Assembly: GCA_023135905.1 (NCBI GenBank)
Contig: JAGLSE010000029.1
Span: 1-54,032, forward strand
Origin: Candidatus Omnitrophota bacterium
Lineage (GTDB): Bacteria > Omnitrophota > Gorgyraeia > Duberdicusellales > 4484-171
Length of the DNA stretch: 54,032 nt
Direction of reading: 5' to 3'
Each line of letters starts with the position of its first letter. Within the stretch, counting starts at the first letter, position 1. This document shows positions 1 through 48,447 of the stretch, in pieces. The notes under the pieces are model-generated. The model searched no databases. It was not told the origin of the DNA and worked only from the letters and a program-made list of their open reading frames with translations. A program made the position numbers and the translations under genes.

Positions 1-46
1 AATTCGAGATCCATCTGCCTGAGAAGTCTCATTGAGGATAGTGATT

Positions 47-13492: not shown

Positions 13493-13653
13493 AGTATATG
13501 ATAATATCATGATAAAAATATCTTGCAAGGATATATTCTTTGTATTAAACTCTTTAAAAGTAACTAAAATAGTGTATACTTGTTAAGTTCTGGAAAATGT
13601 ATGTTTATAGATGTTTTAATCATTAAGAATTAAATTAAAAAGGCATAGAAATT

Positions 13654-29125: not shown

Positions 29126-29245
29126 TTTAATCAATGAGACATAGACTTTTGGAGAAAAATCTGTAGTCGAATAGAACCTGAGCGAGTAAAACGAGTCGAA
29201 GGATTTCGGGTTTAATTCCCGCAGTTTGCTGCGGGTTCGGTGATT
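29126..29245 (+). repeat. Dispersed structured element, copy 1 (120 nt, single-hairpin deletion variant)
   Basis: TTTAATCAATGAGAC...GAGCGAGTAAAACGAGTCGAAGG...GGGTTTAATTCCCGCAGTTTGCTGCGGG-TTCGGTGATT. It lacks the ~48 nt between the two GC hairpins of the full copies. Confidence 0.85.
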
Positions 29246-29267
29246 CCGTATAGAGAATTAGGAAAAT

Positions 29268-30158
29268 ATGAAAAAATTTTTTTTGTTTTTATGTGTTAGT
29301 TTTTTGATTTCAAGGTTAGGGTATTCGGAAAATCATTTAAATGAAAATAATAATAATTTTTTATGGGAAGTTAAATCAGCAGTAAATAAAGTTTATATTC
29401 TTGGTTCTATTCACTTGGGTAAGAAGGAATTTTATCCTTTAGATGTAAAAATTGAAGAGAGTTTTAAGAAATCAGACTTTTTGGTAGTAGAGGTTAATCT
29501 AAATGATATTGATCCTGTAATTATTCAAAATATGGTTTTTGAAAAAGGATTTTATCCCGTAGGCGAAATTTTAAAAGACCATTTATCTGGTAAGACTTAC
29601 CAATTAGCGGCTGAAAAATTTCAAAAATTAGGATTAGATATAGAATTTTTCAATGATAGTAAACCTTGGTTTATAGCGATGAATATAACGACTATGGAAC
29701 TTATGCGATTAGGATATAACCCAGAGTATGGTATAGATAAGTATTTTTTAGAGAAAGCAAAAAATAATAAAAAAATATTGGGATTTGAAACATTCGAATT
29801 TCAGCTTGGATTGTTTGATAGTTTTTCAGAAAAACAACAAGAACTTTTTTTACTTTCTACTTTAGCCGAAGTAGACCTTATATCACATGAAATGGATAAA
29901 ATGTTGTATCTTTGGAAAAATGGGGATGCAGAAAAAATGGAATTGATGTTGAGTAAGCCTTTAAAAGTATATCCGGAAATAAAGAATATTTATGATAAAT
30001 TGATTTACGATAGAAACGAAAAGATGGCTAATAAGATTGACGGTTTTTTAAAAGATGATGCTATCTATTTTATTGTGGTTGGAGCCGCTCATTTAGTCGG
30101 AGAGAAAGGAATTATTTCTATTTTAGAAAAAAAAGGATATTCTGTTATTCAGTTATAA
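29268..30158 (+). CDS. TraB/GumN family protein (secreted)
   Basis: Signal peptide, then FLWEVKS..NKVYILGSIHLG, YDRNEKMA and VVGAAHLVGEKG motifs characteristic of TraB/GumN. Confidence 0.8.
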   Translation: MKKFFLFLCVSFLISRLGYSENHLNENNNNFLWEVKSAVNKVYILGSIHLGKKEFYPLDVKIEESFKKSDFLVVEVNLNDIDPVIIQNMVFEKGFYPVGEILKDHLSGKTYQLAAEKFQKLGLDIEFFNDSKPWFIAMNITTMELMRLGYNPEYGIDKYFLEKAKNNKKILGFETFEFQLGLFDSFSEKQQELFLLSTLAEVDLISHEMDKMLYLWKNGDAEKMELMLSKPLKVYPEIKNIYDKLIYDRNEKMANKIDGFLKDDAIYFIVVGAAHLVGEKGIISILEKKGYSVIQL

Positions 30159-30189
30159 TTATTTAAATGATAAAAAAAGTTGGTTTTTC

Positions 30190-30447
30190 ATGATTCAAAA
30201 AATTGCTTTAATCTCAGCTGTAATTTTGCCTTTATGGAATATCCCCCTTATTTTTAGAATAGTAAAAAGAAAATCATCAGTAGATATTAGTTTGTGTTGG
30301 GCTATCGGGGTTTGGAGTTGTTTTGCTTTAATGCTGCCGGCGGGTTTAGTTTCTGAGGATTTAGTCTTTAAAGTGTTTAATGTTTTTAATTTTTTTATGT
30401 TTAGTATAGTGACTATTTTTGTGTTTATTTATAGAAAAAAGAAATAA
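30190..30447 (+). CDS. Small 3-TM membrane protein, PQ-loop/SemiSWEET-like (tentative)
   Basis: 85 aa with three predicted helices. NIPLIFRIVKRKSSVDISL resembles the PQ-loop signature (PQ..k..k.ks..g.S) with Q replaced. Confidence 0.5.
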   Translation: MIQKIALISAVILPLWNIPLIFRIVKRKSSVDISLCWAIGVWSCFALMLPAGLVSEDLVFKVFNVFNFFMFSIVTIFVFIYRKKK

Positions 30448-30630
30448 GAAAGGTTTCTAAATAAATATTTTTAGGTTATTTAAACTGCAAATTGAGATTA
30501 ATAGCAATATTGATTATATTAATAAAAAGTTAATGTTCTTAGTCATTAGTTTAACTTTAAAAATAAATATTGGGTAAAGTTAAGTATTGGTTTTATTTTA
30601 TCAAGGGTATTATATTTTAAAGGAGGTGTA

Positions 30631-31215
30631 ATGGTAAAAAAGATTTATAAGCGAAGAAAATTTATAATACACCATTCAATTCAAGTCAGATATATTTTGT
30701 TGAGTGTTTTGCCGGCTTTAGCTATAAGTATTTTTTGTGTTTTCTTTTTAGTTAAAAGCGGTGAAAATATGATTTTACGGTCAGAATTAGAATTAAACAA
30801 AATTAGTAAATATACCCAAATGCTTAATGAATTAGAAGGTCAGAAACAGCCTATAAAAGTTTTAGAGAAAATATTGACTTTAAAAATTGAGTTATTATCT
30901 TTTCAGAAAAGTATGCAAAAGACATACTTATCTAATTTTATGGAATGGATAAATATTTGTATGCAAATTCTTATTGGTTTATTTATTGTTTCGTTTCTTG
31001 TAATGATATTGGCAATTATATATTCGCATCGTATTGCCGGGCCAATTTATAGAGTTAAAAGGTATTTAGATATGATGGCTGAAAGCAATGACCTTCCTCC
31101 TCCGATATCTTTTCGTGAATATGATGAATTTAAAGAAATAGCAGACTCAGTAAATAAAGTTATTGAAAAGATAGATACTGAATCAAAACGACGGTCATCT
31201 AAGGATTTGAAGTAG
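30631..31215 (+). CDS. Two-TM membrane protein with HAMP-like linker
   Basis: GGAGG SD, two TM helices flanking a ~70-aa outside loop, then IYSHRIAGPIYRVKRYLDMMA...EFKEIADSVNKVIEKI, which is HAMP-like. No output domain. Confidence 0.6.
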   Translation: MVKKIYKRRKFIIHHSIQVRYILLSVLPALAISIFCVFFLVKSGENMILRSELELNKISKYTQMLNELEGQKQPIKVLEKILTLKIELLSFQKSMQKTYLSNFMEWINICMQILIGLFIVSFLVMILAIIYSHRIAGPIYRVKRYLDMMAESNDLPPPISFREYDEFKEIADSVNKVIEKIDTESKRRSSKDLK

Positions 31216-31524
31216 ATATCTGTGGGTTTGAATTTATAAAGCATAGTCATTATTTGTTATGTTGGATAAGATAAGATAAGAAAATCTCATACTTTATAGG
31301 ACATAATAATATTTGTTACTATAGTAGTAGCTCGACTTATTGATTTGTAGGGTAATGCTAGAAAAATTAGTGAAGAATCCAATGCTGATTTTATAAAGTC
31401 TGGCTTTATAAGGATAGCATAAACATATTAGTTAATTATATAAGTAGGTATGAGCAAATCATTCAAGATGAACCTTTTTTGAAAGATTTATTTTATAGTT
31501 TTGAAGTTATGGAAATAGCTGAAA

Positions 31525-31665
31525 GAGAAAAATCTGTAGTAGAATTGATCTTGAGCGAGTAAAACGAGTCGAAGGATCACGGGTTTAATTCCCCGCAGTT
31601 TACTGCGGAAAAGTTATTTAGAGGAAACCTTCGATACCTCGTGGCTTACTGCGGGGTAGTTGATT
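31525..31665 (+). repeat. Dispersed structured element, copy 2 (5' ~25 nt diverged or truncated)
   Basis: GAGAAAAATCTGTAGTAGAATTGATCTTGAGCGAGTAAAACGAGTCGAAGGATCACGGGTTTAATTCCCCGCAGTTTACTGCGG...CCTCGTGGCTTACTGCGGGGTAGTTGATT. Confidence 0.85.
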
Positions 31666-31808
31666 AAAGCGTTGGGTGTCTTAGCTTTGTTGGTAGTGGA
31701 GAAAACTAAAGGTTTAGGAGACTTGAATTTCAAAGCCTGTCTGCGAGGCAAGTAGGAAAAAAATTTGGTAATATTTGTTTTGATATCTAGTTTAGCAACA
31801 AAAATATC

Positions 31809-31836
31809 TTGCCTAAACGAGTCTCTATGTTATAAT
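31809..31836 (+). promoter_or_regulatory. Candidate sigma70-type promoter for tRNA-Phe
   Basis: TTGCCT (31809-31814), a 16-nt spacer, then TATAAT (31831-31836), about 40 nt upstream of the tRNA 5' end. Confidence 0.4.
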
Positions 31837-31875
31837 TTTTATATTTTAATAACTAATATTAGGCTTTATATAGAT

Positions 31876-31948
31876 GGCGAGGTAGCTCAGTTGGTAGAGC
31901 GAGGGACTGAAAATCCCTGCGTCAGGGGTTCAATTCCCTTCCTCGCCA
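31876..31948 (+). tRNA. tRNA-Phe (anticodon GAA), no encoded CCA
   Basis: Hand-folded cloverleaf: acceptor GGCGAGG/CCTCGCC, D arm GCTC-AGTTGGTA-GAGC, anticodon arm AGGGA-CTGAAAA-TCCCT, T arm AGGGG-TTCAATT-CCCTT, discriminator A followed by CTT. Confidence 0.93.
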
Positions 31949-31953
31949 CTTAT

Positions 31954-32122
31954 TTTAATCGATGAGACTTAGATGTTTCGGAGAAAAATCTGTAGTCGAA
32001 TTGATCTTGAGCGAGTAAAACGAATCGAAGGATTTCGGGTTTATTTACCCACAGTTTACTGCAGAAAAGTTATTTAGGGGAAACCTTCGATACCCTCGTA
32101 ACTTGCTACGGGGTAGTAGATT
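31954..32122 (+). repeat. Dispersed structured element, copy 3 (most diverged full-length copy)
   Basis: Starts 6 nt after the tRNA-Phe 3' end. TTTAATCGATGAGACTTAGATGTTTCGGAGAAAAATCTGTAGTC...GGGTAGTAGATT. Hairpin 1 carries two disrupting substitutions (CCACAG/CTGCAG). Confidence 0.85.
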
Positions 32123-32315
32123 TTAGGTTTTAAAAAAAATGATAATTACTATTAATTTTTGAAAATAAAGTTGTTCATAAAGCAGTAAAACAAAAATACG
32201 TTTTTATTTATTTGGCGAACCATTTTCTATTTTAGAATGTAACGTCTGATGAGGGCTCTTTAATTAATATCTAAGTTCTATTATACAAATTTAATATATA
32301 CATTATGTCTTAATA

Positions 32316-33800
32316 ATGAAAAAAGTAGTAATTTGTATCTCTTTTGTCCTGCTTATAACATTCCATAAAACTTTTCCTATTTTTAATCAAATCAATGGTT
32401 TAGAAGATGCTCAATTTAAAAGAATAGCTGTTTCAAGGTTTGATTCTAGTTTTTTGTATGCGGCATCGAATAATTCATTGTTTAAAAGCAAAGATAATGC
32501 TGAAAGTTTTTTAAAAGTTGCTGTATTTAAAGGTGAGGAGATACAGCATATTTTTTTTGACCTATATTTAGCAGATGTTATATATATATGTACAACGAGA
32601 CATCTTTTTAAATTTAAGGATAAATTAGAAACACTATATTCAGCTCCTGATGACCAAAAAATATATACAGCAGTAAAAAATAAGGGGATTATTCATATTG
32701 GGACAAGTCAAGGGATATATTCTTCTGCGGAAGATTTTCTGAGTTGGAGTAAATTAAAAAGTTTAAGAGAAAATTCTATTTATTGGATAGAACCGGATCC
32801 TCAAAATGATAGAGTATTAATTGCTTCGGATAAAGGAGTGTATACTTTATTAGCAAATGATAATGTTGAGAGGATTTTTGTTTTAAGACAGGAAAAAGAG
32901 GAAGATCGGTCTAGGTTGATTTCTAAGATTATAAAGATTAATGTTTTCAATAGTAATGAGATTTGGTTGGGAACAACTAAAGGATTATTTGTTTCAAAAG
33001 ATTCCGGGATTAATTGGAAAAAATTATATATATCAGGCATAAGTAATTTAGAGATTAACTCTTTAGAGCAGACAGAATTACAGAAAAATACCCTTTATTT
33101 AGGCTCGAATAATGGTTTTTATGAAATTGATATTATTAAAAATAAATCTAAAGAAATATTTGAAGGACTTTATTCTACAAATATATCTTGGGTAAGATTT
33201 AATTCCTTGGGAGAAATATATTTGGCTACTAAAAAAGGGTTGTTTAAAAATCATTACTTTACGTCTTCTTATAAAAACAATACCCTCGAAATAATTTTAA
33301 AGAAAGAACCTTCTATCCAAGATGTTCAAGAACGTGTAATGCGATATAATCACGTGCATCCTGAAAAGATGGAACAATGGAGAAACTCCTTGAGATATAG
33401 GGGGCTTTTCCCTAAAGTAGATTTAAATTACGCTAAGACCATTTATGGGACTGCAGGTACTAGCACTTATGATGGAAAATCTTTTGTAGGACCTCGGGAC
33501 TGGGGTGTTTCTTTTTCTTGGAATATAGGGGATCTGTTGTGGAACAGTTATGAAGATGATGTTGATACAAGAGCCAGGCTTAATACCCAATTGAGGTTAG
33601 ATATACTTGATGAGGTTAATAGAGTTTATTTTGAGAGGTTAAGATTGAAAAAAGAGATAGATGATGCTAATTTTGAACCGGAAAAATTGTTTGAGAAAAA
33701 AATGAGATTAAAAGAACTTACATCAATCCTGGATGGATATACAGGGGGATATTTTTCTGATAGATTAAAACAGCTAAATGAGATGGTGTATGAAGATTGA
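32316..33800 (+). CDS. Secreted BNR/Asp-box beta-propeller-like protein with a helical C-terminal region
   Basis: Signal peptide. Repeated G(T/S)xxG(I/L/V)(Y/F) blades, including a canonical Asp-box SKDSGINW and degenerate ones (SKDNAESF, SAEDFLSW). The C-terminal ~150 aa are helical (LRLDILDEVNRVYFERLRLKKEI). Confidence 0.6.
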   Translation: MKKVVICISFVLLITFHKTFPIFNQINGLEDAQFKRIAVSRFDSSFLYAASNNSLFKSKDNAESFLKVAVFKGEEIQHIFFDLYLADVIYICTTRHLFKFKDKLETLYSAPDDQKIYTAVKNKGIIHIGTSQGIYSSAEDFLSWSKLKSLRENSIYWIEPDPQNDRVLIASDKGVYTLLANDNVERIFVLRQEKEEDRSRLISKIIKINVFNSNEIWLGTTKGLFVSKDSGINWKKLYISGISNLEINSLEQTELQKNTLYLGSNNGFYEIDIIKNKSKEIFEGLYSTNISWVRFNSLGEIYLATKKGLFKNHYFTSSYKNNTLEIILKKEPSIQDVQERVMRYNHVHPEKMEQWRNSLRYRGLFPKVDLNYAKTIYGTAGTSTYDGKSFVGPRDWGVSFSWNIGDLLWNSYEDDVDTRARLNTQLRLDILDEVNRVYFERLRLKKEIDDANFEPEKLFEKKMRLKELTSILDGYTGGYFSDRLKQLNEMVYED

Positions 33801-34827
33801 TAAACCTATAGTTTTGATTCTTTGCGGAGGAAGATCTCTTCGGCTATGGCCGTTGTCTCAATATAAAAGTAAAAATTTCATAGATATCTTTGGGGTTTCT
33901 CCTTTAGAAATAACAATAAAAAGATTTTTAAAAGTTACACCTCTAGACAATATTTATTTGGTTGCTAATAAAAATGAAAAGAAGTCTTTGGAGAAATTGA
34001 AATTATTGAATAAAAAAAATATATTTTTTGAATCTGAAGGCAAAAATACCGCAGCTGCAGTCCTTTTATCATTATTAAATTTAAGAAAATATGCAAAAAA
34101 TAATATAATAATCGCGCCGGTGGATGCTCTTATCAAAAAAGAAAAAAGTTTTTATTCGGCTTTGAATAAATCTTTTAAAGCGGCTAGCGACGGATGGTTA
34201 TGTTCCTTAGGGATCAAGCCGTTAACCCCGGATATTAATTTCGGTTATATCCTGGCTAAAGTCGATTCTGGTAAAAAAGCTAAAGGTATTTATCCGGTTA
34301 GCAAATTCATTGAAAAACCTGAGCTTGATTTGGCAAAACTGCTTATATCCAAAGGAAATTGTTATTTTAACAGCGGAATGTTTATTTCTAGGATTTCAAC
34401 ATTGCTTGAAGAATATAAAAAATATTATTATGGTTATGACCGATTTGTAGAAAATTTTGATAAAGGCACTATTTCTGTTTTTTATAAAAACATTGAGAAT
34501 ATTCCTTTTGATAAAGTAATAATGGAGAAAACAAAAAAAGCTGTGGTTATTGAAAGTAATTTTTCTTGGAAAGATTTTGGTAATTGGCAAGCTATTTACG
34601 AAGTTTTACCAAAGGATAAGAATGGGAATGCAAAAATAGGAAATATCTGTATTAATAAAAGTACAAATAATTTAGTTTATATAGATAATTCTAAAAAGAA
34701 AATTTTAGTTATGGGTATTGATAATATATGTTTTGTTGATACAAAAGAATATACTCTCCTTACTACTCGAGACAAATTAGATAATATTAAGTCGGCTTTA
34801 TCTCATATGAATTCAGATAAGTGCTAA
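33790..34827 (+). CDS. Mannose-1-phosphate guanylyltransferase-like nucleotidyltransferase
   Basis: ILCGGRSLRLWPLS (GG.G.RLWPLS) NTP-transferase signature. It lacks the C-terminal PMI/cupin domain. ATG at 33790 is preferred over 33778. It overlaps the upstream stop. Confidence 0.78.
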   Translation: MKIDKPIVLILCGGRSLRLWPLSQYKSKNFIDIFGVSPLEITIKRFLKVTPLDNIYLVANKNEKKSLEKLKLLNKKNIFFESEGKNTAAAVLLSLLNLRKYAKNNIIIAPVDALIKKEKSFYSALNKSFKAASDGWLCSLGIKPLTPDINFGYILAKVDSGKKAKGIYPVSKFIEKPELDLAKLLISKGNCYFNSGMFISRISTLLEEYKKYYYGYDRFVENFDKGTISVFYKNIENIPFDKVIMEKTKKAVVIESNFSWKDFGNWQAIYEVLPKDKNGNAKIGNICINKSTNNLVYIDNSKKKILVMGIDNICFVDTKEYTLLTTRDKLDNIKSALSHMNSDKC

Positions 34828-34846
34828 TAGATTAAATGTATAAGCT

Positions 34847-34880
34847 GCTCCACCGACTTTAGTCGGGGGAGCAATTTTAC
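34847..34880 (+). terminator. Rho-independent terminator
   Basis: GCTCCACCGAC-TTTA-GTCGGGGGAGC (10 bp plus 1 mismatch) followed by AATTTTACTTTT, 20 nt after the manC-like stop. Confidence 0.7.
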
Positions 34881-34949
34881 TTTTAATAAATTCATAATAA
34901 TAGAAGTTATTTTTAATTAAAGAAAATTAGTTTTTAAGGAGTTCATTAA

Positions 34950-35879: not shown

Positions 35880-36534
35880 AGAAAATATAGAAAATATTCT
35901 TAAGGATTTACCTCCCGGTGTGAAGATAGTCGCTGCGGCTAAGGAAAGAAGTGTTGATGAAATAAGAGAAGCTATAAGTTCTGGAATAAAAATAATTGGT
36001 GAAAATTATATTAATGAGGCTCGTTCTAAATTTGAAGTTATAGGAAAAGAGGTGAAATGGCATTTTATAGGGCATTTACAAAAAAATAAAGCTAAATATG
36101 CTGCCACGATATTTAATGTTGTAGAGACATTAGATTCTTTGGAATTGGCTGAAGTCCTGGATAGGGAGTGTTGGAAGATAAATAAAATTATGCCGGTTTT
36201 TTTGGAGATTAATTCTGCTTCAGAACCACAGAAGCAAGGGATATTGATAGAAGAAGCTGAAGGCTTTCTAGATAAAATTTTAAGATTTAAACATTTAAAG
36301 CCCAGCGGTCTTATGACCATGGGTCCATTTAGCGATAATCCCGAGGAGTTACGGCCTTTCTTTAAAAAAACAAAAAACTTATTTGATAAAATTAAATTAA
36401 ATTATGGGAATATTTTAGAATGGAAATACCTTTCTATGGGCATGAGCTTTTCGTATCAGATAGCTATTGAAGAAGGAGCTAATATTGTAAGAATTGGTGC
36501 TGCTGTTTTTGGACCAAGAAAACAGAAAATTTAA
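35872..36534 (+). CDS. yggS: YggS-family pyridoxal-phosphate homeostasis protein
   Basis: VAAAKERS (PLP-Lys region), IGENYINEA, WHFIGHLQKNK and LSMGMS motifs. 8-nt overlap with the upstream gene. Confidence 0.88.
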   Translation: MIKENIENILKDLPPGVKIVAAAKERSVDEIREAISSGIKIIGENYINEARSKFEVIGKEVKWHFIGHLQKNKAKYAATIFNVVETLDSLELAEVLDRECWKINKIMPVFLEINSASEPQKQGILIEEAEGFLDKILRFKHLKPSGLMTMGPFSDNPEELRPFFKKTKNLFDKIKLNYGNILEWKYLSMGMSFSYQIAIEEGANIVRIGAAVFGPRKQKI

Positions 36535-36595
36535 GTTTTTTATTTTATGTAGAAATAAATTAAAATATTTCTAATATAAAAATACTTTTTTGAGG

Positions 36596-36760
36596 TTTAA
36601 TCAATGAGACTTAGATTTTTCGGAGAAAAATCTGTAGACGAATTGATCCTGAGCGAGTAAAACGAGTCGAAGGATGTTGGGTTTAATTCCCCGCAGTTTA
36701 CTGTGGTAAAGTTATTTAGGTGAAACGTTCGATATCCCGCTTGCTACGGAGTAGTTGATT
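36596..36760 (+). repeat. Dispersed structured element, copy 4
   Basis: TTTAATCAATGAGACTTAGATTTTTCGGAGAAAAATCTGTAGACGAATTGATCCTGAGCGAGTAAAACGAGTCGAAGGATG...CCCCGCAGTTTACTGTGG...GTAGTTGATT. There is a 3-nt deletion in hairpin 2. Confidence 0.88.
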
Positions 36761-36820
36761 GTATGAATGCATTTTTAGAATGCGTACTTTGGTTTTTAAA
36801 ATAAGCTATAGCAGAAAATA

Positions 36821-37102
36821 AAAAGTGCTTATGACAGTTTATTCGTTGCGGTAGAATTAGTAATAGTAGGCAATATTATTGATTTAGGTATAAAAATTTG
36901 ATTAAATTTGAAAAAGAATCAGAAGATTTTTTTAAATATTATAATAAGGCAGATTCAATAATAAGTAAAGATCAAGGAAGTTTTGAAACTTTATCCGGAG
37001 TTGGTAAGAAAATACATTTTTATTGAGAGCAAAATGCCTTGTTGTAACTAAAATTTAGGATGCAAATTAGGAGATACTGTATTAGAATATAGTTTGTTAT
37101 AG
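36821..37102 (+). pseudogene. Eroded DUF89 (damage-control phosphatase ARMT1-like) remnant
   Basis: Reads KSAYDSLFVAVELVIVGNIIDLGIKI*, then ADSIISKDQGSFETLSGVGKKIHFLLRAKCLVVTK, a frameshift, then NLGCKLGDTVLEYSLL*. This is colinear with the DUF89 motifs aGN.iDfg and KGQGNYETL...FLLKAKC.V.A..LG...GD.V. A large internal deletion, a stop and a frameshift are present. Confidence 0.6.
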
Positions 37103-37240
37103 TTGTCCATGCCTGCCGATTGGCAGGAAACAATATACAAGTATCAGGAATTAATAAGAAAAATCAAAATAAGTTAAAATGATTAGGTGTAATTATTTTA
37201 AAAGAGCAAATAAACGGTTTTATTATAAAAAAGGTGATAT

Positions 37241-37948: not shown

Positions 37949-38348
37949 GTGATAATGGAGAAAAAATATTTCGGTCATTTTGAAATTTGTTGAATGATTA
38001 AGCATATATTTAAAGAGTTACGGTATCATATTTCGTTTACTATTTTTGGAGCAATTTCTGGAGTTATTATGATGATTATTTTTTTGGGGATTATCTTATA
38101 AGGTTTCACATACTTTTTTTTATGTTTTGCTGTATGGATGCTATGTTGTGTTCGCGATATTATATTTACGCTTTTATTTGTTAAAGGAAAAAGTATTATT
38201 TTTAGAATATTTTTTATAGAATGCTCTTTTATGAAGAAGACTTTTGGCTATTTGTAAAATTTATTGTTAGTAAAGACGGCCAATTAAAACGCGGATGTTA
38301 TTAGGCAACAGCTTTATTGATGGTTGGATATGCGAAAGGAGAGAAAGA

Positions 38349-38690
38349 GTGTCTATTGAAAGAAACTTTATTTGTTTTGGGATGTTATTATTTGTTTTAG
38401 GATGTGCTGAAATGAGGGATTATACAGGAATTAGAAATGGATCCTTTGGATTAGATATTCAGCGAGGGTTTGATGAGGGTGGAGTAAAAAAGGATTATTG
38501 TTTGCTCAAAGAAGGCGTAGATTTAGTAGCAAGAGATACTAAAGATGAAGTGGTTTCTAAGTTAGGTTTTCCAGATAAGATAGGAAATACTTTAGATGGT
38601 TGTGAAAAGTGGGTGTATAAGGGGGATAAAATTAGTTTATTTTTTAAAGAACACCGTTTAACGAGTTGGGAGTTTTTTAAGGAAGAATAG
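38349..38690 (+). CDS. Small lipoprotein, function unknown
   Basis: GTG at 38349 lies 7 nt after AAGGAG (38336-38341). Lipobox LFVLGC follows a short basic/hydrophobic signal. The track ORF (38295) starts further upstream without an SD. Confidence 0.6.
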   Translation: MSIERNFICFGMLLFVLGCAEMRDYTGIRNGSFGLDIQRGFDEGGVKKDYCLLKEGVDLVARDTKDEVVSKLGFPDKIGNTLDGCEKWVYKGDKISLFFKEHRLTSWEFFKEE

Positions 38691-38928
38691 AGGCAGCTAA
38701 TTGTTTGGTAGTGGCTTGTACTGTTTGTTTTGGATTTATTTTAATATTGATTAGATATATTAATTGGTAGATAAGAAAGCCAAAAAGGAAAAATTGAAAT
38801 GATTAGATTAAACATTTAACAATCCTCACTAGTTGATTTTACTTTACAAATAAATAATAAATTAAATATGATAAGATAATTAGACAATATTTCTTATAAA
38901 TTGTTTGTCCGTAAATAATAATAAATCC

Positions 38929-39915: not shown

Positions 39916-39939
39916 AACAACAAAGTATAATACCTAATT

Positions 39940-41787: not shown

Positions 41788-41863
41788 TTATATAATATTG
41801 TAGATTCAAAATTTTCCCAATTATGGTGAGGTGGATAAAATTTTGAAAGGAGTTTATGCCTAA

Positions 41864-43081
41864 GTGAGAATAACTCCAATAAAAGTAAAAAATTTAGAAG
41901 AAACCTCAAAATTGATGACAGCTATAGGGGTAAGCGCGGAAGGAATTAAGATACTTTCGCTAAAAAGTATATATTGTGCTTTTAAAATAGAAAACATCAA
42001 ATCTTGGGAAGCGAATATATTAAAACAGTATCTTCTTTCTTTAGGTAGTGATGCAGCTATTGAAAGAAACGCTTTAGTGAAAGATATCGAAACAACAGCT
42101 TTTATTTTTGGCAGCTTAAAACAATTGAAAAACCTCTGCGGTAAGTTAAGAAACCAACCGTTCAGACTTCAAGAAATTTCACAAATAATTACATCTTATT
42201 TGGATAATTTATATATAAAAGACTTTAAGTTTTATGCAAGAGGTAAATTATTAAAAATAAAAGATCCTATTATTTGCGGTATAATAAACGTTACATATGA
42301 TTCATTTTCCGGGGATGGTTTAATTCAAAAAGGTCAAAATACTGGTGATAAGGTCAAATATTTAGCGTTAAAAAAATGTGAGAATATGATAAAGCAGGGA
42401 GTTAAAATAATTGATTTAGGTGGAGAATCATCTAGACCTTTTTCTACTCCTATTGAAGGTGTAGAAGAGGCAAAAAATGTAATACCAATCTTGAAGGCGA
42501 TAAGGAATGAGTTTAAGAAAGTATTTATTTCAATTGATACCTATAAATATTTAGTGGCTAAAAAAGCTGTAGATGAAGGAGTAGATATTATTAATGATAT
42601 AACAGCTTTTAGAGGGGATAAAAGAATGCTGAATCTTGTAAAAAAAAATGATTTAGGCTGTGTACTTATGCATATGAAAGGAATCCCCCAGACAATGCAG
42701 GAAAAAGTAACTTATAAAGATACAGTAACTGAAATAATAGATTTTTTTAATGAAAGATTGAATTTTTGTTTTAAAAAAGGAATCAAAAAAGAACATGTTT
42801 TGATTGATCCGGGGATAGGGTTTGGAAAACGACAAGAAGATAATCTTAGGATTATGAAAGAACTTTATAAATTAAAGATTTTTGGGTTACCTATTTTTTT
42901 AGGGTTATCACGCAAATCTTTTATTGGTAATATCCTCAATAATAAAGTAGAAGATAGACTTATAGGGACAATGGCAGCAAATGTTATATCTTTAATCAAA
43001 GGTGCTAATATTTTAAGGGTTCATGATGTGAAAGAAACAATGCAGGTTATAAAGATTTCATCAGCAATAATGAATAACTAA
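41864..43081 (+). CDS. folP: Dihydropteroate synthase with a ~130-aa N-terminal extension
   Basis: The core begins at ICGIINVTYDSFSGDG and includes IIDLGGESSRP, DTYK, INDI and RVHDV motifs. GTG start. The N-terminal 130 aa have no assigned domain. Confidence 0.85.
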   Translation: MRITPIKVKNLEETSKLMTAIGVSAEGIKILSLKSIYCAFKIENIKSWEANILKQYLLSLGSDAAIERNALVKDIETTAFIFGSLKQLKNLCGKLRNQPFRLQEISQIITSYLDNLYIKDFKFYARGKLLKIKDPIICGIINVTYDSFSGDGLIQKGQNTGDKVKYLALKKCENMIKQGVKIIDLGGESSRPFSTPIEGVEEAKNVIPILKAIRNEFKKVFISIDTYKYLVAKKAVDEGVDIINDITAFRGDKRMLNLVKKNDLGCVLMHMKGIPQTMQEKVTYKDTVTEIIDFFNERLNFCFKKGIKKEHVLIDPGIGFGKRQEDNLRIMKELYKLKIFGLPIFLGLSRKSFIGNILNNKVEDRLIGTMAANVISLIKGANILRVHDVKETMQVIKISSAIMNN

Positions 43082-43839
43082 TGGATTTAAAAATTTTTTC
43101 AAATTGGAAAGCTATTTTAGAAGTTTTAATTCTTTGGGCTGCAGTTTATAGAATATTTCTTTTTTTAAAAGGTACTAAAGCAGTTTATTTGTTGAGAGGC
43201 ATATTTATTCTTGTTGTTTCTCTTTTTGTCTTTCAAATATTAGGATTGCCTGTTCTTACTAAACTTTTGACATATATTTTTACGGCTTTTATTATTCTTG
43301 TAGTGGTTATTTTTCAACCCGAATTAAGGGAAGGCTTGATGCATTTGGGGAAAAGGCACGTTTTTTATATAGAGCCTAAGAGGGAAGAAATTGAAAAAAC
43401 TTTAAGAGATATTGTTTCTGCTGGAGGCATATTATCGCGAAAAAAAATTGGGGCATTGATTGCTATAACTAGAGAAATAGGGTTAAAAAAATATATTGAA
43501 AGTGGAGTAGTCTTAAATGCTGATCTTAGTTCGGAATTGTTACAAAATATTTTTTATCCTTCAGCTCCATTACATGATGGAGGGGTAATAGTTGTAGGTA
43601 CTAAGGTTGTAGCCGCCAGTTGCCTTTTTCCTCTTAGTGATAATTTTAATTTTGAAAAAACATTAGGAATGCGCCATAGAGCTGGTGTTGGAGTATCGGA
43701 AAATTCGGATGCTATAGTAGTTATAGTTTCGGAAGAAACTGGTTCAATATCTTTAGCGATAAACGGACAGCTTACCAGAAATTTAACACCTAATGATTTG
43801 CTTACGATTTTAAAAGGACAATTGTCTAAGACCCGTTAG
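43081..43839 (+). CDS. cdaA: Diadenylate cyclase CdaA (c-di-AMP synthase)
   Basis: Three N-terminal TM helices and a DAC domain with PLHDGGVIV and GMRHRAGVGVSE (DGA and RHR motifs). TAATG overlap with folP. Confidence 0.92.
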   Translation: MDLKIFSNWKAILEVLILWAAVYRIFLFLKGTKAVYLLRGIFILVVSLFVFQILGLPVLTKLLTYIFTAFIILVVVIFQPELREGLMHLGKRHVFYIEPKREEIEKTLRDIVSAGGILSRKKIGALIAITREIGLKKYIESGVVLNADLSSELLQNIFYPSAPLHDGGVIVVGTKVVAASCLFPLSDNFNFEKTLGMRHRAGVGVSENSDAIVVIVSEETGSISLAINGQLTRNLTPNDLLTILKGQLSKTR

Positions 43840-43888
43840 TAAGAAATAGTAATAATATTTCAGTTAATTGTTTTTCAAAGGAGAAAAG

Positions 43889-44023
43889 ATGGAGTTCTTA
43901 AAAAACATTAGTCTAAAAAAAGCTATTACTTATAATTTTTGGTTAAAAGTAGGCTCATTAATTATTGCAATTCTTATTAGGGCTTATGTCTATGAAGGAA
44001 TTACTAAAGGCGTGAAAATATAG
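43889..44023 (+). pseudogene. cdaR: Truncated CdaR/YbbR-like regulator remnant (44 codons)
   Basis: AAAGGAG SD. MEFLKNISLKKAITYNFWLKVGSLIIAILIRAYVYEGITKGVKI* matches only the N-terminal anchor (N..LK..SL..A..L..YV) of YbbR-domain proteins, which normally follow cdaA. It stops 12 nt before repeat copy 5. No YbbR domains follow. Confidence 0.6.
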
Positions 44024-44035
44024 TAATTTATGTTT

Positions 44036-44204
44036 TTTAATCAATGAGACTTAGATTTTTCGGAGAAAAATCTGTAGTCGAATAGATCTTGAGCGAGTAA
44101 AACGAGTCGAAGGATCTCGGGTTTAATTCCCCGCAGTTTACTGCGGAAAAGTTATTTAGGAGAAACCTTCAATACCCCCGTAGTTTGTTGCAGGGTAGTT
44201 GATT
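44036..44204 (+). repeat. Dispersed structured element, copy 5 (near-consensus)
   Basis: TTTAATCAATGAGACTTAGATTTTTCGGAGAAAAATCTGTAGTCGAATAGATCTTGAGCGAGTAAAACGAGTCGAAGGATCTCGGGTTTAATTCCCCGCAGTTTACTGCGGAAAAGTTATTTAGGAGAAACCTTCAATACCCCCGTAGTTTGTTGCAGGGTAGTTGATT. Confidence 0.9.
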
Positions 44205-44257
44205 TTGAAAAATAGAATTTAAGATATTAGTTGTATTATAGCGAAGAGGTTTATAAA

Positions 44258-44971
44258 ATGAAGTTAGGTGTTAACGTTGATCACGTTTCTACATTAAGAG
44301 AAGCTCGGGGCACTTTGTATCCAGATCCTGTAGAAGGAGCTTTATTGGCAGAGTCTGCTGGTTGTGATTCTATAGTAGCTCATTTAAGAGAAGATAGACG
44401 GCATATAAAAGAGAGAGACATTATCGGCATTAAAGAAGCTATAAAGATACCTTTAAATTTAGAAATGTCTGTTAATAAGAATATTGTTTCTTTTGCTCAG
44501 GAAATATGTCCGTATCAATCTACATTTGTTCCCGAGAGGAGACAAGAACTAACTACCGAAGGAGGGATTGATTTAGTAAAAAATTATAAAAAAGTTTACG
44601 ATGTTATAAAGAAATTAAAAAAATCCGGGATTAGAGTTAGCTTGTTTATAGATCCTTTAATAGTACAAATTAAAGCAGCCAAGGACTTGGGTGCGGATAT
44701 TATTGAAATTAATACTGGTAGATTTTCTGAAACAAAAACAGTACGATCTTCTGAAGTAGAAATTAGAAAGATAACGAAAGCTGCTATATTTTCTAAAAAA
44801 CAAGGGTTTTTTGTATCTGCTGGACATGGTTTAGATTATGAGAATGTAAAAGAAATATCTAAAATTGAAGAAATAGAGGAACTTAATATTGGTCATTCGA
44901 TAATGAGTAGATCAGTTTTTGTAGGGATAGTTTCTGCCGTTCGCGAAATGTTTTTTTTGATTGGTAAATGA
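44258..44971 (+). CDS. pdxJ: Pyridoxine 5'-phosphate synthase
   Basis: MKLGVNVDHVSTLREARG, HLREDRRHI, and pdxJ-acpS synteny. ATG at 44258 is preferred over the TTG at 44231. Confidence 0.93.
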   Translation: MKLGVNVDHVSTLREARGTLYPDPVEGALLAESAGCDSIVAHLREDRRHIKERDIIGIKEAIKIPLNLEMSVNKNIVSFAQEICPYQSTFVPERRQELTTEGGIDLVKNYKKVYDVIKKLKKSGIRVSLFIDPLIVQIKAAKDLGADIIEINTGRFSETKTVRSSEVEIRKITKAAIFSKKQGFFVSAGHGLDYENVKEISKIEEIEELNIGHSIMSRSVFVGIVSAVREMFFLIGK

Positions 44972-45027
44972 AAACTTTTAATAAATAATAAACATTAAAA
45001 TTGTATTTATTAAGGGAGAAATGGATT

Positions 45028-45381
45028 ATGGTATTAGGGGTAGGAATTGATATAGTAAAAGTAGATAAAATTAAGGTTTCATTGGAAAAATGGAAAGATT
45101 CTTTTTTGGAACGCGTATTTAATCCGGAAGAATTAGAAAATATTTCTAAAAATAAGTTATATTATCAACGCATAGCTGCTCGTTTTGCTGCTAAAGAAGC
45201 GATTATAAAAGCATTATCGAAAAGTGGTCCTTTGGCGTTAAAAGATATGTTGATATTAAACAAGGAAAATGGGGCTCCATTTTGTAAATTTAAAAATAAT
45301 ATTGGTGTAGATATTTTTTTATCAATAACCCATATTGAAGATTATGCAGTTGCCTGTGCAGTGGCTCAAAAGAAGATGTGA
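45028..45381 (+). CDS. acpS: Holo-[acyl-carrier-protein] synthase
   Basis: GVGIDIV..., RFAAKEAIIKA and SITH motifs. ATG at 45028 follows AAGGGAG. Confidence 0.9.
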   Translation: MVLGVGIDIVKVDKIKVSLEKWKDSFLERVFNPEELENISKNKLYYQRIAARFAAKEAIIKALSKSGPLALKDMLILNKENGAPFCKFKNNIGVDIFLSITHIEDYAVACAVAQKKM

Positions 45382-46216
45382 TACTCATAAAGGCGACTAT
45401 GGGCATGCTTTTGTTCTAGGCGGGTCAGTAGGTCTTACTGGATCAATTTGCCTATGCGCAAAAGCTGTTTTAAAAATTGGGGCTGGTTTGGTTACTGTAG
45501 GGATTCCTGCATCATTGAATCCTATTTTTGAAATTAAACTTACCGAAGAGATGAGTTTACCTTTAGTTGAAGAACAAGGTTATTTATCTTATGGTGCTTT
45601 GAAAGAAATAAGAAAAAAAATAAACAAATTTGATGTAGTAATATTAGGTCCAGGAGCCTCTATTAGACCTTCTGCTATAAAGTTGATGGTTTCAATAATA
45701 AAATCCATTGATAAACCTTTAATAGTTGATGCGGATGCAATAACAGCCTTATCAACTAATTTAAATATTTTAAATAGCAGAAAAACTAATAAATTGATAT
45801 TGACTCCACATTTAGGTGAGTTTTCTCGTTTAATTAAATTAGACATTGGTGAAATAAAGAAAAAGAGAAAAAAACTTGTCAAAGACTTTGCTCTCAGATA
45901 TAATCTTATACTTGTGCTTAAAGGGCATACTACATTAGTTAGCGATGGAAAGGAGATATTTGAGAATAATACTGGAAACCCGGGAATGGCTACAGCGGGG
46001 ATGGGCGATATACTTGCAGGTATAATTACCGGTTTAGTCGTCCAGGGTCTTGATTGTTTTGAGGCTGCAAAAATAGGTGTTCATCTTCATGGATTATCAG
46101 CAGACTATGCAGTTAAAGATAAAACTGAGACTTGTCTTATTGCTTCCGATGTATTACAATATTTGCCGGAAGGTTTAAAATCTTTTCAAAAGGAGTTTGA
46201 TAATTTGCCGGCGTAG
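45335..46216 (+). CDS. nnrD: ADP-dependent NAD(P)H-hydrate dehydratase (YjeF C-terminal / carbohydrate-kinase domain only)
   Basis: THKGDYGHAFVLGGSVGLTGS, VDADA, TPHLGEF and GNPGMATAGMGDILAG motifs. The start is uncertain (TTG 45335 or ATG 45344; overlaps acpS). The last 10 nt, including the stop, lie inside tRNA-Thr. Confidence 0.85.
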   Translation: MKIMQLPVQWLKRRCDTHKGDYGHAFVLGGSVGLTGSICLCAKAVLKIGAGLVTVGIPASLNPIFEIKLTEEMSLPLVEEQGYLSYGALKEIRKKINKFDVVILGPGASIRPSAIKLMVSIIKSIDKPLIVDADAITALSTNLNILNSRKTNKLILTPHLGEFSRLIKLDIGEIKKKRKKLVKDFALRYNLILVLKGHTTLVSDGKEIFENNTGNPGMATAGMGDILAGIITGLVVQGLDCFEAAKIGVHLHGLSADYAVKDKTETCLIASDVLQYLPEGLKSFQKEFDNLPA

Positions 46217-46282
46217 CTCAATTGGTAGAGCATCTCACTTGTAATGAGAATGTTGGGGGTTCAAGTCCTCTCGCCGGCTCCA
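46207..46282 (+). tRNA. tRNA-Thr (anticodon TGT), CCA encoded
   Basis: Hand-folded: acceptor GCCGGCG/CGCCGGC, D arm GCTC-AATTGGTA-GAGC, anticodon arm TCTCA-CTTGTAA-TGAGA, T arm GGGGG-TTCAAGT-CCTCT, then T-CCA. Confidence 0.92.
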
Positions 46283-46329
46283 TAAAGATAGAGATTAAAC
46301 AGTTCTTATGATAAAATGGAAATAATTAA

Positions 46330-46415
46330 GGACAGGTTCCCGAGTGGTCAAAGGGGACAGACTGTAAATCTGTTGCGCTTGCGCTTCGGAGGTTCAAATC
46401 CTCCCCTGTCCACCA
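46330..46415 (+). tRNA. tRNA-Tyr (anticodon GTA), long variable arm, CCA encoded
   Basis: Acceptor GGACAGG/CCTGTCC, anticodon arm ACAGA-CTGTAAA-TCTGT, long variable arm (TGCGCTTGCGCTTCGGA region), T loop TTCAAAT, then A-CCA. Confidence 0.92.
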
Positions 46416-46509
46416 TAAATGTCTAAAACACTATTATTTTAGAAAAAGAAACCAGAATAAAACAGTATCATATTTGAGATTTAGAAAAACATAAGTAAAT
46501 ATCATTTCA

Positions 46510-46583
46510 GCGGGTGTAGTTCAATGGTAGAACACTAGCCTTCCAAGCTGGATATGGCGGTTCGATCCCGCTCGCCCGCTCCA
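46510..46583 (+). tRNA. tRNA-Gly (anticodon TCC), CCA encoded
   Basis: Acceptor GCGGGTG/CGCCCGC (one G-T pair), D arm GTTC-AATGGTA-GAAC, anticodon arm CTAGC-CTTCCAA-GCTGG, T arm GGCGG-TTCGATC-CCGCT, then T-CCA. Confidence 0.92.
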
Positions 46584-46757
46584 TAAAAAAATATTTTTTG
46601 GTTATAAAACTTTATATATATATTATCTTGAATTAAGAGTAACTAAAAAATTTTGAAAAACATATCTTCTATCGTAAAAATTGAAATAAAATATTATTAA
46701 TTAAAATAAAGTTGTAAAGGCAGTACTTACTTTTTATTTTTTGGGAGATAAATAATT

Positions 46758-47762
46758 ATGAAAGAAAGTTTATCTATAATCGGAGCTGGAAACTGGGGAA
46801 CAACTTTAGCTATAACCTTATCTTTAAAAGGGTTATCTGTTGATTTGCATAGTGTATTCGAAGAACATAATATCCAGATGCAGGAAGAAAGAGTAAATAA
46901 TCTATTTTTAAAAGGGAAAAGATTTCCTCCATCTTTGACTATAACCAAAACATTAGAAGATGCTTTAAAAAATGATATTATTATAATTGCTATTCCGGTT
47001 AAATTTATCAGTAGTGTTTTGAAGAAGATTAAAAAGCATAAAGTATCTTTAAAAAATAAAATTTTTGTAAGTGTAAGTAAAGGTATAGAGTCTAAATCAT
47101 TAAGAAGAGTTTCTCAAATAATAAAGGATGAATTAAATATTTTAAATATAGCAGTCCTTTCAGGACCAAATATCGCTAATGAGGTTATAAATAATGTGCC
47201 TTCAGCCGCTATTTTGGCATGTAAAAATAAAAAAATCGGACATAGGCTGCAAATTTTATTTACAAATCCGACATTTAGAGTTTATTATCATAAAGATATT
47301 ATAGGCGTGGAACTTGGCGGAGCTTTAAAGAATATAATAGCCCTTTCGTGTGGTATTTCTGATGGTTTAGGGTTTGGGATTAATACCAAAGCTGCTTTAG
47401 CAACCAGAGGGTTGGCAGAAATTACTCGATTAGGTAAGGCATTAGGGGCTAATCCTATTACGTTTTGGGGTATAAGTGGACTTGGAGATTTGGCTACAAC
47501 TTGTTTTTCAGCATATTCTCGTAACCGGATTGTAGGAGAACAGATAGGTAAAGGAAGAAAATTAGATGATATTATAAAAGATATGAATATGGTAGCTGAA
47601 GGAGTTGAAACTGTCAAAGCGGCTTTTAAATTAAGCAGGAAGTTAAATATAGATATGCCTATTATGAAAGAAGTTTATTCTGTTTTATATAAAGGAAAAT
47701 CGCCTAAAAAAGCTGTAGAGGATTTAATGACTAGGCCTTTAAAAACAGAAAAAATAGGTTGA
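46758..47762 (+). CDS. gpsA: NAD(P)H-dependent glycerol-3-phosphate dehydrogenase
   Basis: IIGAGNWGTTLA Rossmann motif, SKGIE, GPNIANEV and GGALKNIIA motifs. Confidence 0.94.
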   Translation: MKESLSIIGAGNWGTTLAITLSLKGLSVDLHSVFEEHNIQMQEERVNNLFLKGKRFPPSLTITKTLEDALKNDIIIIAIPVKFISSVLKKIKKHKVSLKNKIFVSVSKGIESKSLRRVSQIIKDELNILNIAVLSGPNIANEVINNVPSAAILACKNKKIGHRLQILFTNPTFRVYYHKDIIGVELGGALKNIIALSCGISDGLGFGINTKAALATRGLAEITRLGKALGANPITFWGISGLGDLATTCFSAYSRNRIVGEQIGKGRKLDDIIKDMNMVAEGVETVKAAFKLSRKLNIDMPIMKEVYSVLYKGKSPKKAVEDLMTRPLKTEKIG

Positions 47763-48280
47763 ATTATATTGGAGGATAGAACTAATAAGAGGATTAAAAT
47801 GTCTGGTATTCATCATTAGATTCATTAGTTAGAAGAGAATGTATAAATATTTTAATTGACGATAAATTATTGTAGTTTATTCCATAAAATTCAGTTCTGA
47901 TGTTGAACAAATAAGCATATATTGTACCTTTTGATTGCATTCGGCTGAATATTTATTATATTTTTACCTAACATTTTATTAGAGTATTTTCTGTTCCGGA
48001 AATTTCAATATTTATAATGTAACTTAGCTAATTTTTGGTTAATAATAAATCTAATTCCACGAATACGTATATTTTCGGTTTTACCTTTAAAAGTTTTGTT
48101 TTGAGAGTTACGAATAATTGTTTTAGACGGCACATTTATTCTGAAAAAATTTCGTCTTTCATCAGCGTTTCATATTATGGAAATCTCCTTTTTAAGATTA
48201 AAATAAAAAAACAATAGTTCAATAAAATCAGAAGTATTATTTATTTTTTTGTGTTAAAAAATATGTAAAAATTAGAGAAA

Positions 48281-48447
48281 TTTAATCAATGAGACTTAGA
48301 TTTTTAGGAGAAAAATCTGTGGTCGAATTGATCCTGAGCGAGTAAAACGAGTCGAAGTCTCTTGGATTTAATTCCCCGCATTTTACTGCGGAAAAGTTAT
48401 TTAGGGGAAACCTTCGATACCCCCGTAGCTTGTCGCGGTAGTTGATT
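48281..48447 (+). repeat. Dispersed structured element, copy 6
   Basis: TTTAATCAATGAGACTTAGATTTTTAGGAGAAAAATCTGTGGTCGAATTGATCCTGAGCGAGTAAAACGAGTCGAAGTCTCTTGGATTTAATTCCCCGCATTTTACTGCGGAAAAGTTATTTAGGGGAAACCTTCGATACCCCCGTAGCTTGTCGCGGTAGTTGATT. It ends 81-96 nt upstream of the gcvT start. Confidence 0.9.

Follow-up and report, generated by a model that had tools for sequence, protein, structure and literature searches.

A small, gene-less and very probably mobile repeat family of Omnitrophota, inserted next to AATC and carrying a hairpin core that recurs in other phyla

Among described systems, the closest to the element reported here are gene-less derivatives of the IS200/IS605 insertion sequences (IS), the palindrome-associated transposable elements (PATEs), whose mobilisation in trans is documented (PMC10055086). 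In IS608, one TnpA dimer binds both hairpins (PMC3201880), and insertion takes place 3' of TTAC, the motif remaining in the flank "without DNA gain or loss" (PMC3201880; PMC5934647). The present report concerns a repeat of about 165 nt that occurs six times in a stretch of 54,032 nt (below, "the window" is this whole stretch; contig JAGLSE010000029.1, positions 1 to 54,032, assembly GCA_023135905.1). The host is an uncultured Candidatus Omnitrophota, represented by a metagenome-assembled genome (MAG), and the window has 30% GC. We believe that the six repeats very probably belong to a family of small mobile non-autonomous elements of Omnitrophota that carry no gene.

The initial annotation, made from the letters of the window, listed six same-strand copies and put their identity at 85-95%. 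Repeat finding and alignment bear out all six with their coordinates (Table 1), each on the + strand, and the invariant core GAGCGAGTAAAACGANTCGAAG is present six times in the window against 0.00 expected (100 shuffles). The family is real at a somewhat lower identity, 73-90% between pairs of copies in a model-fitted alignment that includes 3-7 flanking bases per copy end. Searched with a covariance model built from the copies (R1), the window gives exactly these six, with the - strand empty, and one weak match inside a gene (15100-15283, E=0.012), which is probably spurious. The region was extended on both sides of the window through other assemblies of the same organism (L070 upstream, L073 downstream; contigs are given by such handles) to about 82 kb in total, where three further + strand copies were found; the orientation is therefore the same in 9 of 9 full or near-full copies. 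The copy in L073 (11959-12135) sits at the end of a radical-SAM gene and overlaps its stop codon. Copies in L062 and L017 are likewise co-directional with the flanking genes, and contigs of other assemblies end within copies.

The extents initially given for two copies are correct as coordinates, while their nature is different. Copy 1 is not a simple truncation: hairpin P4 (hairpins are labelled as in Table 1) is joined to the 3' tail by an internal deletion, and both termini are retained (...CTGCGGGTTCGGTGATT). Copy 2 is the right part of a composite insertion, whose left ~236 nt are unrelated sequence, and it is devoid of the left arm of P1; compared with L068, the junction of the composite insertion in the window reads GAAAATCTC|...|TTGGGTG.

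The evidence for mobility comes from relatives with 78-90% protein identity, in which copies 1, 2, 3 and 5 are missing at the orthologous sites. These relatives are a MAG with 90% TraB identity (L068) and MAGs with 87% PdxJ and 78% TraB identity (L062-L064, L066-L067). The site of copy 1 is empty in L068 and in L066/L067, copy 3 is missing after tRNA-Phe in L066, and copy 5 is missing in L062/L064. In a 71% relative (L065) the spacer between the YggS-like and metallo-beta-lactamase-fold genes is just 74 nt long, without the element, and its 20 kb contain no copy. The 87% relative has a diverged copy of its own upstream of tilS (L064 39-214), with none at the window counterpart (38690-38905). 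Considering that copies are present or missing at orthologous sites among relatives, the element is, or recently was, mobile.

Three pairs of filled and empty sites are informative (copies 1, 2 and 5). The empty site of copy 1 is CTTAAATC|TGTATAC (L068) and that of copy 5 is GTTTAATC|ATTTCGA (L062); in both sites, when filled, AATGAG...GTTGATT comes immediately after AATC, and the same right flank resumes behind it. In the empty site of the composite insertion with copy 2, AAAATC(TC)|TTGGGTG, AATC is 2 nt from the junction. Every copy is preceded by AATC or AATT (the background frequency of AATC is 0.0045 per position), and the base before AATGAG is mostly C, being T in L073 and L017. Since AATC is kept in the empty sites and the base before AATGAG is variable, the left boundary of the element is placed at AATGAG, and AATC/AATT belongs to the flank. 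The complementary termini AATCAA/TTGATT described in the initial annotation are present as a 6-nt symmetry, and no long terminal inverted repeats accompany them; with AATC assigned to the flank, however, this apparent inverted repeat is partly target. No target-site duplication was found at any copy, and the flanks contain no direct repeat, as had been noted. The insertion is directly 3' of AATC/AATT, and target bases are neither gained nor lost.

Selection keeps the hairpins P1, P2 and P4 rather than their sequences, as evidenced by compensatory changes across diverged lineages. In a MAFFT alignment of nine sequences, 89% of cells pair, and nine pairs have double changes against 3.4±1.5 in shuffles. 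With 13 sequences, including the diverged Omnitrophota L062/L064, L038 (48% GC) and L017, double changes are seen in 19 pairs, whereas shuffles give 7.5±1.9 (none of 500 reaches 19), and 90% of cells are paired against 33-54% with the partners slid; this alignment was fitted to the model and favours the structure. The covarying pairs are 11 of 14 in P1, 5 of 9 in P2 and 2 of 5 in P4; P0, P3 and a long-range helix exhibit no useful covariation in the 13-sequence and alternative-pairing tests. The RNAalifold consensus of the nine sequences was an implausible long-range fold; the helices were therefore specified by hand.

These results agree with the long 5' hairpin (P1) and the two paralogous GC-rich hairpins (P4 and P5) of the initial annotation. 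The long-range pairing of GGTTT with AAACC and of CCCC with GGGG proposed there is not supported: it does not covary, and a local GGG-loop-CCC hairpin fits equally well. What was described as a direct repeat, CGAGT-AAAA-CGAGT, enclosed in a stem allows a drawing as a hairpin containing two tandem G.A/A.G pairs, in favour of which are the swaps G:C to C:G and U:A to C:G. As drawn, the core of P2 consists of U:A, G.A, A.G, G:C, C:G (with a bulged U), G.A, A.G and G:C closed by the loop UAAAA; the tests covered its Watson-Crick pairs, and the G.A tandems belong to the drawing, where we infer them from the conserved CGAG/CGAG and UGAG/CGAA pattern, considered together with what is known of such motifs in general. 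In RNA as well as in DNA, stable tandem G.A pairs are known to form where CGAG is opposite CGAG and UGAG opposite CGAA. The Watson-Crick pairs of P2 are backed by diverged copies: the closing G:C is C:G in L064, and L017 additionally has C:G for U:A with the bulge lost; the tandem G.A positions are retained in diverged copies and not swapped for Watson-Crick pairs.

The transitions that preserve G-U pairs, noticed at the outset, are indeed present, and G:U exceeds A.C within the element by 30 to 16, an excess to which the genome's own G/T-rich strand bias could contribute. The constraint acts on the single + strand and not on the duplex, because there are compensatory changes, G:U prevails over A.C, and the G.A tandems can be folded on one strand only. 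The initial annotation was right in this respect; its preference for RNA is not sustained, as RNA and single-stranded DNA (ssDNA) are not told apart by the data.

Table 1. Positions of the element copies and of the parts of copy 5, which serves as the reference (window coordinates unless a contig handle is given)
Feature	Position	Strand	Remarks
Copy 1	29126-29245	+	Internal deletion variant; 22 nt upstream of the TraB-like gene start
Composite insertion	31289-31671	+	~383 nt; wholly missing from the 90% relative L068
Copy 2	31525-31665	+	Without left arm of hairpin P1; covariance-model match 31507-31669
Copy 3	31954-32122	+	Full length; begins 5 nt past tRNA-Phe (31876-31949)
Copy 4	36596-36760	+	Full length; spacer between YggS-like and metallo-beta-lactamase-fold genes
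Copy 5	44036-44204	+	Full length, reference copy; upstream of pdxJ
Copy 6	48281-48447	+	Full length; gcvT 81 nt downstream
Extra full copies	L070 2798-2974, L070 3497-3674	+	Outside the window; flank thiS, 4-7 kb upstream of the window start
Extra full copy	L073 11959-12135	+	Outside the window; ~1.2 kb downstream of the window end
Mini-fragment AATCAACTACCCCGCAGCAAGCTACGGAGTAGCGATT	L070 5457-5493	37-nt palindrome	Upstream of the window; P5 and both tails in inverted arrangement
AATC target-like motif	44039-44042	+	Left junction of copy 5; the element proper starts at the following AATGAG
P1	44048-44079	+	AT-rich 5' hairpin, 14 pairs, one bulged U; double changes in 11/14 pairs across lineages
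P2 ("GA module")	44085-44116	+	Covarying outer stem around the invariant core TGAGCGAGTAAAACGAGTCGAA (44090-44111)
P3	within 44119-44145	+	GGG-UUUAAUU-CCC; weakly supported, no double changes; stacked on P4
P4	within 44119-44145	+	CGCAG-UUUA-CUGCG; double changes in 2/5 pairs
P5	44176-44195	+	GC-rich 3' subterminal hairpin, paralogous to P4
3' tail	to 44204	+	9 nt, TAGTTGATT; end of the element

A point missed by the initial annotation is that the central hairpin is identical, letter for letter, in many other phyla. The exact 22-nt core was found in 29 stretches of GTDB genomes and in 28 metagenome contigs, against ~0.3 matches expected by chance in 596 Gb for 21 specified bases (our own arithmetic); two or three of the matches are coincidences in coding regions (L032, L047). 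At least eight phyla are involved: Bacillota, Patescibacteria, Omnitrophota, Planctomycetota, Pseudomonadota, Desulfobacterota-like symbionts, Rhodothermaceae and FCPU426. The carriers include Oscillospiraceae RGIG7678 (at least 10 contigs), Faecousia, several Patescibacteria, Omnitrophota, Planctomycetia, Gammaproteobacteria, an Olavius delta-proteobacterial symbiont, Rhodothermaceae and FCPU426. In 44 distinct instances the core is invariant and the four flanking pairs covary (the third pair is CG in 32, AT in 4, TA in 2 and GC in 1), with G:U 12 and A.C 2 in these pairs. The same loci are rich in shorter relatives (nnnUGAGC-loop-G(U)CGAAn'n'n'), which are oriented either way and at times lie nested within one another. 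The isolated module in other phyla is of mixed orientation relative to genes and to GC skew (about 20 versus 20), which favours neither RNA nor ssDNA. Ten immediate neighbours of module copies are housekeeping genes, and an all-against-all BLAST of 372 open reading frames (ORFs) around module copies returned only ABC ATPases, epimerases and a four-helix-bundle family. The module has no match in the viral, phage and plasmid collections searched, module-bearing loci from other phyla have no Rfam match at the gathering threshold, and no described family was found for the 22-nt UGAGCGAGUAAAACGAGUCGAA in Rfam or the literature searched, absence there being no proof of novelty.

One may suppose that the 22-nt hairpin UGAGCGAGUAAAACGAGUCGAA is an undescribed, horizontally spreading module, read on one strand by a conserved trans-acting factor, and a portable unit from which mosaic mobile repeats are built in at least eight phyla; we regard this as unlikely. 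Such a factor might be a new enzyme, HUH-type or RNA-guided, or else a protein of the host.

Three observations on the surroundings of the core can be added. In Oscillospiraceae RGIG7678 (L005-L033; e.g., L021 ~7270-7640) at least 10 contigs carry a repeat of ~360 nt that starts with AATCAAAACC and is oriented either way with respect to genes; besides the identical 22-nt core it has a short-loop module in inverted position, and the likeness of the hairpins CCACCAG...CTGGTGG close to its two ends gives it an IS200/IS605-like layout. As both this repeat and the 165-nt element of Omnitrophota start with AATCAA and have an identical core, they may be two cargo-less vehicles of one system. A composite unit is common to L020 ~7470-7590, L022 and L027 (Omnitrophota DeMMO3_15) and L026 ~5230-5350 (Planctomycetia): the G.A module and another UGAGC/CGAA-type module lie inside the loop of a third, inverted module (TGGTTCGAC[...]CTCACCA), i.e., the insertions are nested, and this unit is nearly identical in the two phyla. 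In two unrelated metagenome contigs (L061 ~6963-7290, L037 ~805-1000) the G.A module is found in a segment of ~190 nt bounded by a duplicated tRNA 3' end, which looks like a small insertion into a tRNA gene with an att-like duplication.

Concerning the mechanism, we tentatively propose, by analogy with the IS200/IS605 PATEs and with somewhat less than even confidence, that the element moves through a single-stranded intermediate in an ssDNA/HUH "peel-and-paste" manner. It would be transferred as ssDNA in a reaction of this type by an enzyme acting in trans and encoded elsewhere in the genome, most likely a transposase of the HUH/Y1 type; as template of the lagging strand, the parental + strand would be exposed, and the subterminal hairpins (P1 at 5-6 nt from the left end and P5 at 9 nt from the right end) and the central G.A hairpin would be read on it. 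The AATC-adjacent junction without duplication, the one-strand orientation, the subterminal hairpins and the internal deletions that keep the ends all fit this proposal; both copy 1 and the 37-nt P5-only fragment retain the termini. A non-autonomous element of the IS200/IS605 type was among the four candidates put forward initially, and it fits best of the four, as the empty sites reveal insertion beside AATC without gain or loss of bases. Considering the sense orientation in operon spacers, the copies are probably also co-transcribed, and we presume that any effect on mRNA is secondary.

A number of points weigh against the mobile, PATE-like interpretation and should be stated together. The copies differ by 10-27%, and accordingly there is no sign of very recent bursts. 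The two AATC-bearing "empty" sites could instead be footprints of excision or deletion. Similar subterminal palindromes at the two ends are absent: P1 is AT-rich and P5 GC-rich, the two being unlike each other, and the hairpins that are alike, P4 and P5, both lie in the 3' half. In IS608 the two hairpins are near-identical in sequence. The distance of P1 from the left cleavage point is ~5 nt against 19 nt in IS608. The guide/cleavage pairing, by inspection, is only a partial complement (ATGA/GATA versus AATC/GATT); in IS608 the rules of this pairing are non-linear (PMC5934647). The unpaired segments CGAAUUGAUC and GUUAUUUAGGGGAAACCUUCGAUA are conserved even in the diverged subfamily, which hints at a function beyond recognition by a transposase. 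No Y1/HUH transposase, TnpB or RAYT (REP-associated tyrosine transposase, REP being the repetitive extragenic palindrome) was seen in the ~82 kb of this organism, and no transposase, TnpB or RAYT next to module copies in other phyla.

The orientation also requires caution. The sense orientation in gaps between operons, emphasised in the initial annotation, is observed, although it carries little information, as ~98% of the genes are on the same, G-rich strand. The + strand has 50 of the 51 window ORFs of at least 100 aa, and GC skew is ~+0.3 along the entire window. The orientation bias is consequently confounded, being accounted for just as well by co-orientation with transcription or by counter-selection of antisense copies.

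The absence of nearby mobility or cas genes, also claimed initially, is confirmed for the ORFs scanned: among the scanned or annotated window ORFs of at least 100 aa, none matched a transposase, integrase, reverse transcriptase or cas gene, all being housekeeping or without a family match, and several (e.g., 4290-4616, 36006-36320, 38295-38690, 47288-47617) being without a match or outside the scan.

The first alternative is a structured RNA module, spread by mobility of an unspecified kind. It would be co-transcribed with the operons around it and act in cis or as a small RNA on processing, translation or stability, or else be an orphan RNA of the guide type, for instance the omega-RNA of a TnpB on a PATE; the hairpins would then be conserved for the function of the RNA and not for their reading by a transposase. 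We consider it rather unlikely. The multi-hairpin architecture is kept by compensatory changes in lineages of 30-48% GC, unpaired segments are conserved as well, G:U prevails over A.C, and all 10 copies that lie in co-directional gene contexts have the sense orientation. The annotated proximity to genes also holds: the initial annotation placed copies 22-96 nt upstream of the TraB-like gene, pdxJ and gcvT, and the distance to the next start codon is 22 nt for copy 1, 26 or 53 nt for copy 5 and 81 nt for copy 6. However, the flanking genes are mutually unrelated, distances to the stop or start codon range from 5 to 519 nt, and close relatives manage without the element in the orthologous operons. 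Relative to shuffles the + strand has the better fold (z=-2.9), but the - strand surpasses its shuffles by even more (z=-4.6). The G.A module in other phyla occurs in either orientation relative to genes. No terminator-like site was detected in any copy, and the only promoter-like match is weak (9/12) and on the - strand, at the left end of copy 5 (44044-44017); counts of both equal those of shuffles, and the alternative is thus left without a terminator or promoter signature. The initial statement that the element matches no known RNA family is supported by the Rfam search (Rfam 15), where no family matches it at the gathering threshold or even at E<=10; searches of the window, a single copy and 24 related loci yielded tRNAs, rRNAs and a single cobalamin riboswitch, and nothing else. 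According to PMC10055086, PATEs "often encode omega-RNAs", and the element might encode an orphan guide-type RNA, while no tnpB was seen.

Several related candidates were rejected. A tRNA-like reading of GGGUUUAAUUCCC was dropped, as ARAGORN finds nothing and the loop length is not conserved. Coding was likewise discarded: stops or indels interrupt the - strand frame through the element in copies 2, 3 and 5, and a 55-aa translation has no relatives in the protein collection. The element has no match in the viral contigs, phage collection and plasmid collection that were searched for a phage or plasmid origin, and searches of the literature by exact sequence and by peptide found nothing. The riboswitch (L038 2278-2447, - strand, 65 bits) is directly beside a diverged copy (2492-2650, + strand) and has no obvious downstream - strand ORF.

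The second alternative, a mosaic repeat of the REP type or of the bacterial interspersed mosaic element (BIME) type mobilised by a single-copy RAYT (TnpA_REP), as in REPIN systems, appears quite improbable. It would account for a high-copy extragenic element built of hairpin modules, with stem covariation like that described for REPINs, and for the location between unidirectional ORFs, as known for REPs (PMC3733652). Each copy contains 1-3 occurrences of GTAG, the 3' foot of P5 being among their positions, and there is a palindromic fragment with P5 only, which looks like a REP-like solo unit of the family; the UGAGC...CGAA modules in other phyla are clustered, nested and in both orientations, i.e., BIME-like. 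Nevertheless, the unit is 165 nt with five different hairpins and not a palindrome of 20-40 nt; inverted REP doublets are absent, all copies being direct on one strand; GTAG is inside stems or at the 3' foot of P5 rather than forming a 5' tag free of pairing; the ~82 kb revealed no RAYT; and the core is identical across phyla, whereas REPs are lineage-specific and vertically inherited.

An ordinary MITE (miniature transposable element with inverted repeats) of the DDE type, i.e., a deletion derivative of an IS with terminal inverted repeats that moves by cut-and-paste, is very improbable. The size, the intergenic position, the copy number and the apparent 6-nt terminal repeat AATCAA...TTGATT are suitable, yet target-site duplications are missing at all copies, AATC of the "repeat" belongs to the target and is present in empty sites, and the orientation is single (9/9). 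No parent IS was found in the sequence seen. An insertion in the 99%-identical strain L069, ~115 nt downstream of copy 2, has a 381-aa ORF that is DDE-like by eye; however, this ORF has no Pfam, NCBIfam or PDB match, and the end of the insertion (CCAGTTGACCAATAAATAAG...) has only AGTTGA in common with the terminus of the element. This insertion (L069 ~12544-13855) is strain-specific sequence in place of the tRNA-Phe region of the window; its - strand ORF of at least 381 aa is interrupted by the contig end and has an integrase-like D...D...E pattern (FDTVAH, DSDNGGEF, NAHIEQKNW), and its end contains the subterminal direct repeats GTTGAC(C/T)AATAAATA(A)GTGTTACC. It may be an unclassified IS.

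The last candidate of the initial annotation, a degenerate or domesticated CRISPR mini-array on the minus strand, is refuted by the anatomy and practically out of the question. In its favour is only that CCGCAG-TAAA-CTGCGG-GGAATTAAACC looks by eye like certain types of repeat; the window lacks regularly spaced repeats, CRISPR-like arrays and cas genes, the sequence between the hairpins is conserved among copies (as the same annotation had noted), and the whole 165-nt unit inserts as one piece.

Other features of the region are as follows. In the window together with L070 and L073 all genes except one are on the same strand with GC skew ~+0.3, a strand bias unusually strong for a non-Firmicute lineage. 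The window segment 11340-12662, 1.3 kb without ORFs of at least 60 aa, adjoins the only - strand gene of the window and holds two direct repeats of 117 nt (11993-12109 and 12190-12306, 73% identical); it has a local reversal of AT skew, resembles decayed genes and has no Rfam match. The cysK leader (window 1-46; L070 6990-7126), upstream of a sulfur-metabolism operon, has a GC-rich hairpin GGGATTCCCTGCCGGAAGGCAGGAATTC and other conserved-looking structure, with no Rfam family at threshold; a seventh, inverted copy suspected at window positions 26-40 is a chance match within this leader. A difference of 155 nt between strains upstream of gcvT proved to be a scaffolding gap of Ns.

We conclude that the element is a small non-autonomous mobile repeat with PATE-like behaviour, and that the part which may be new is the cross-phylum G.A hairpin. 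To our knowledge, no small non-autonomous mobile repeats of this behaviour have been described in Omnitrophota; this and the other phyla involved are almost entirely uncultured, and we know of hardly any description of their mobile DNA. The family is a concrete and testable case of site-specific, duplication-free transposition in Omnitrophota; its ends are defined, a target motif is proposed, and a covariance model accompanies it. An identical core on a covarying stem across phyla is the pattern expected of a nucleic-acid motif that binds a ligand or protein, or of a very promiscuous mobile module; if the partner of the core hairpin is found, it could reveal a new system of ssDNA or RNA recognition. 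At the practical level, such repeats break metagenome assemblies and create spurious ORFs, and a model for masking them is useful.

In comparison with known systems, the CGAG/CGAG and UGAG/CGAA contexts in the core of P2 recall the motifs with tandem sheared G.A pairs, which in RNA are 5'-CGAG-3'/5'-CGAG-3' and in DNA mini-hairpins of the GCGAAGC type; whereas these are structural motifs of a generic kind, UGAGCGAGUAAAACGAGUCGAA is a specific sequence of 22 nt. REP, BIME and REPIN repeats are, like the element, extragenic high-copy mosaics of hairpins with compensatory stems between unidirectional genes, while the element is five times longer, has a single orientation and has no unpaired GTAG/CGTC tag. 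The omega-RNA scaffolds of TnpB/IscB resemble it as multi-hairpin non-coding units of ~150 nt ending at the right end of the transposon and oriented towards the flank, and PATEs can carry such RNAs (PMC10055086); however, the element has no match to transposon-associated RNAs in Rfam, and no tnpB was seen in the neighbourhood or beside module copies elsewhere. The element differs from the IS200/IS605 PATEs in three further conserved internal hairpins. It is similar to these PATEs as a short, trans-mobilised derivative (presuming the mechanism proposed above) without coding capacity, in being inserted 3' of a specific short motif which the left flank retains, in the lack of target duplication and of long terminal inverted repeats, and in the right hairpin at 9 nt from the end (10 nt in IS608; PMC3201880). 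Its strict strand bias, on the G-rich (leading) strand that also has nearly all the genes, may be a further resemblance.

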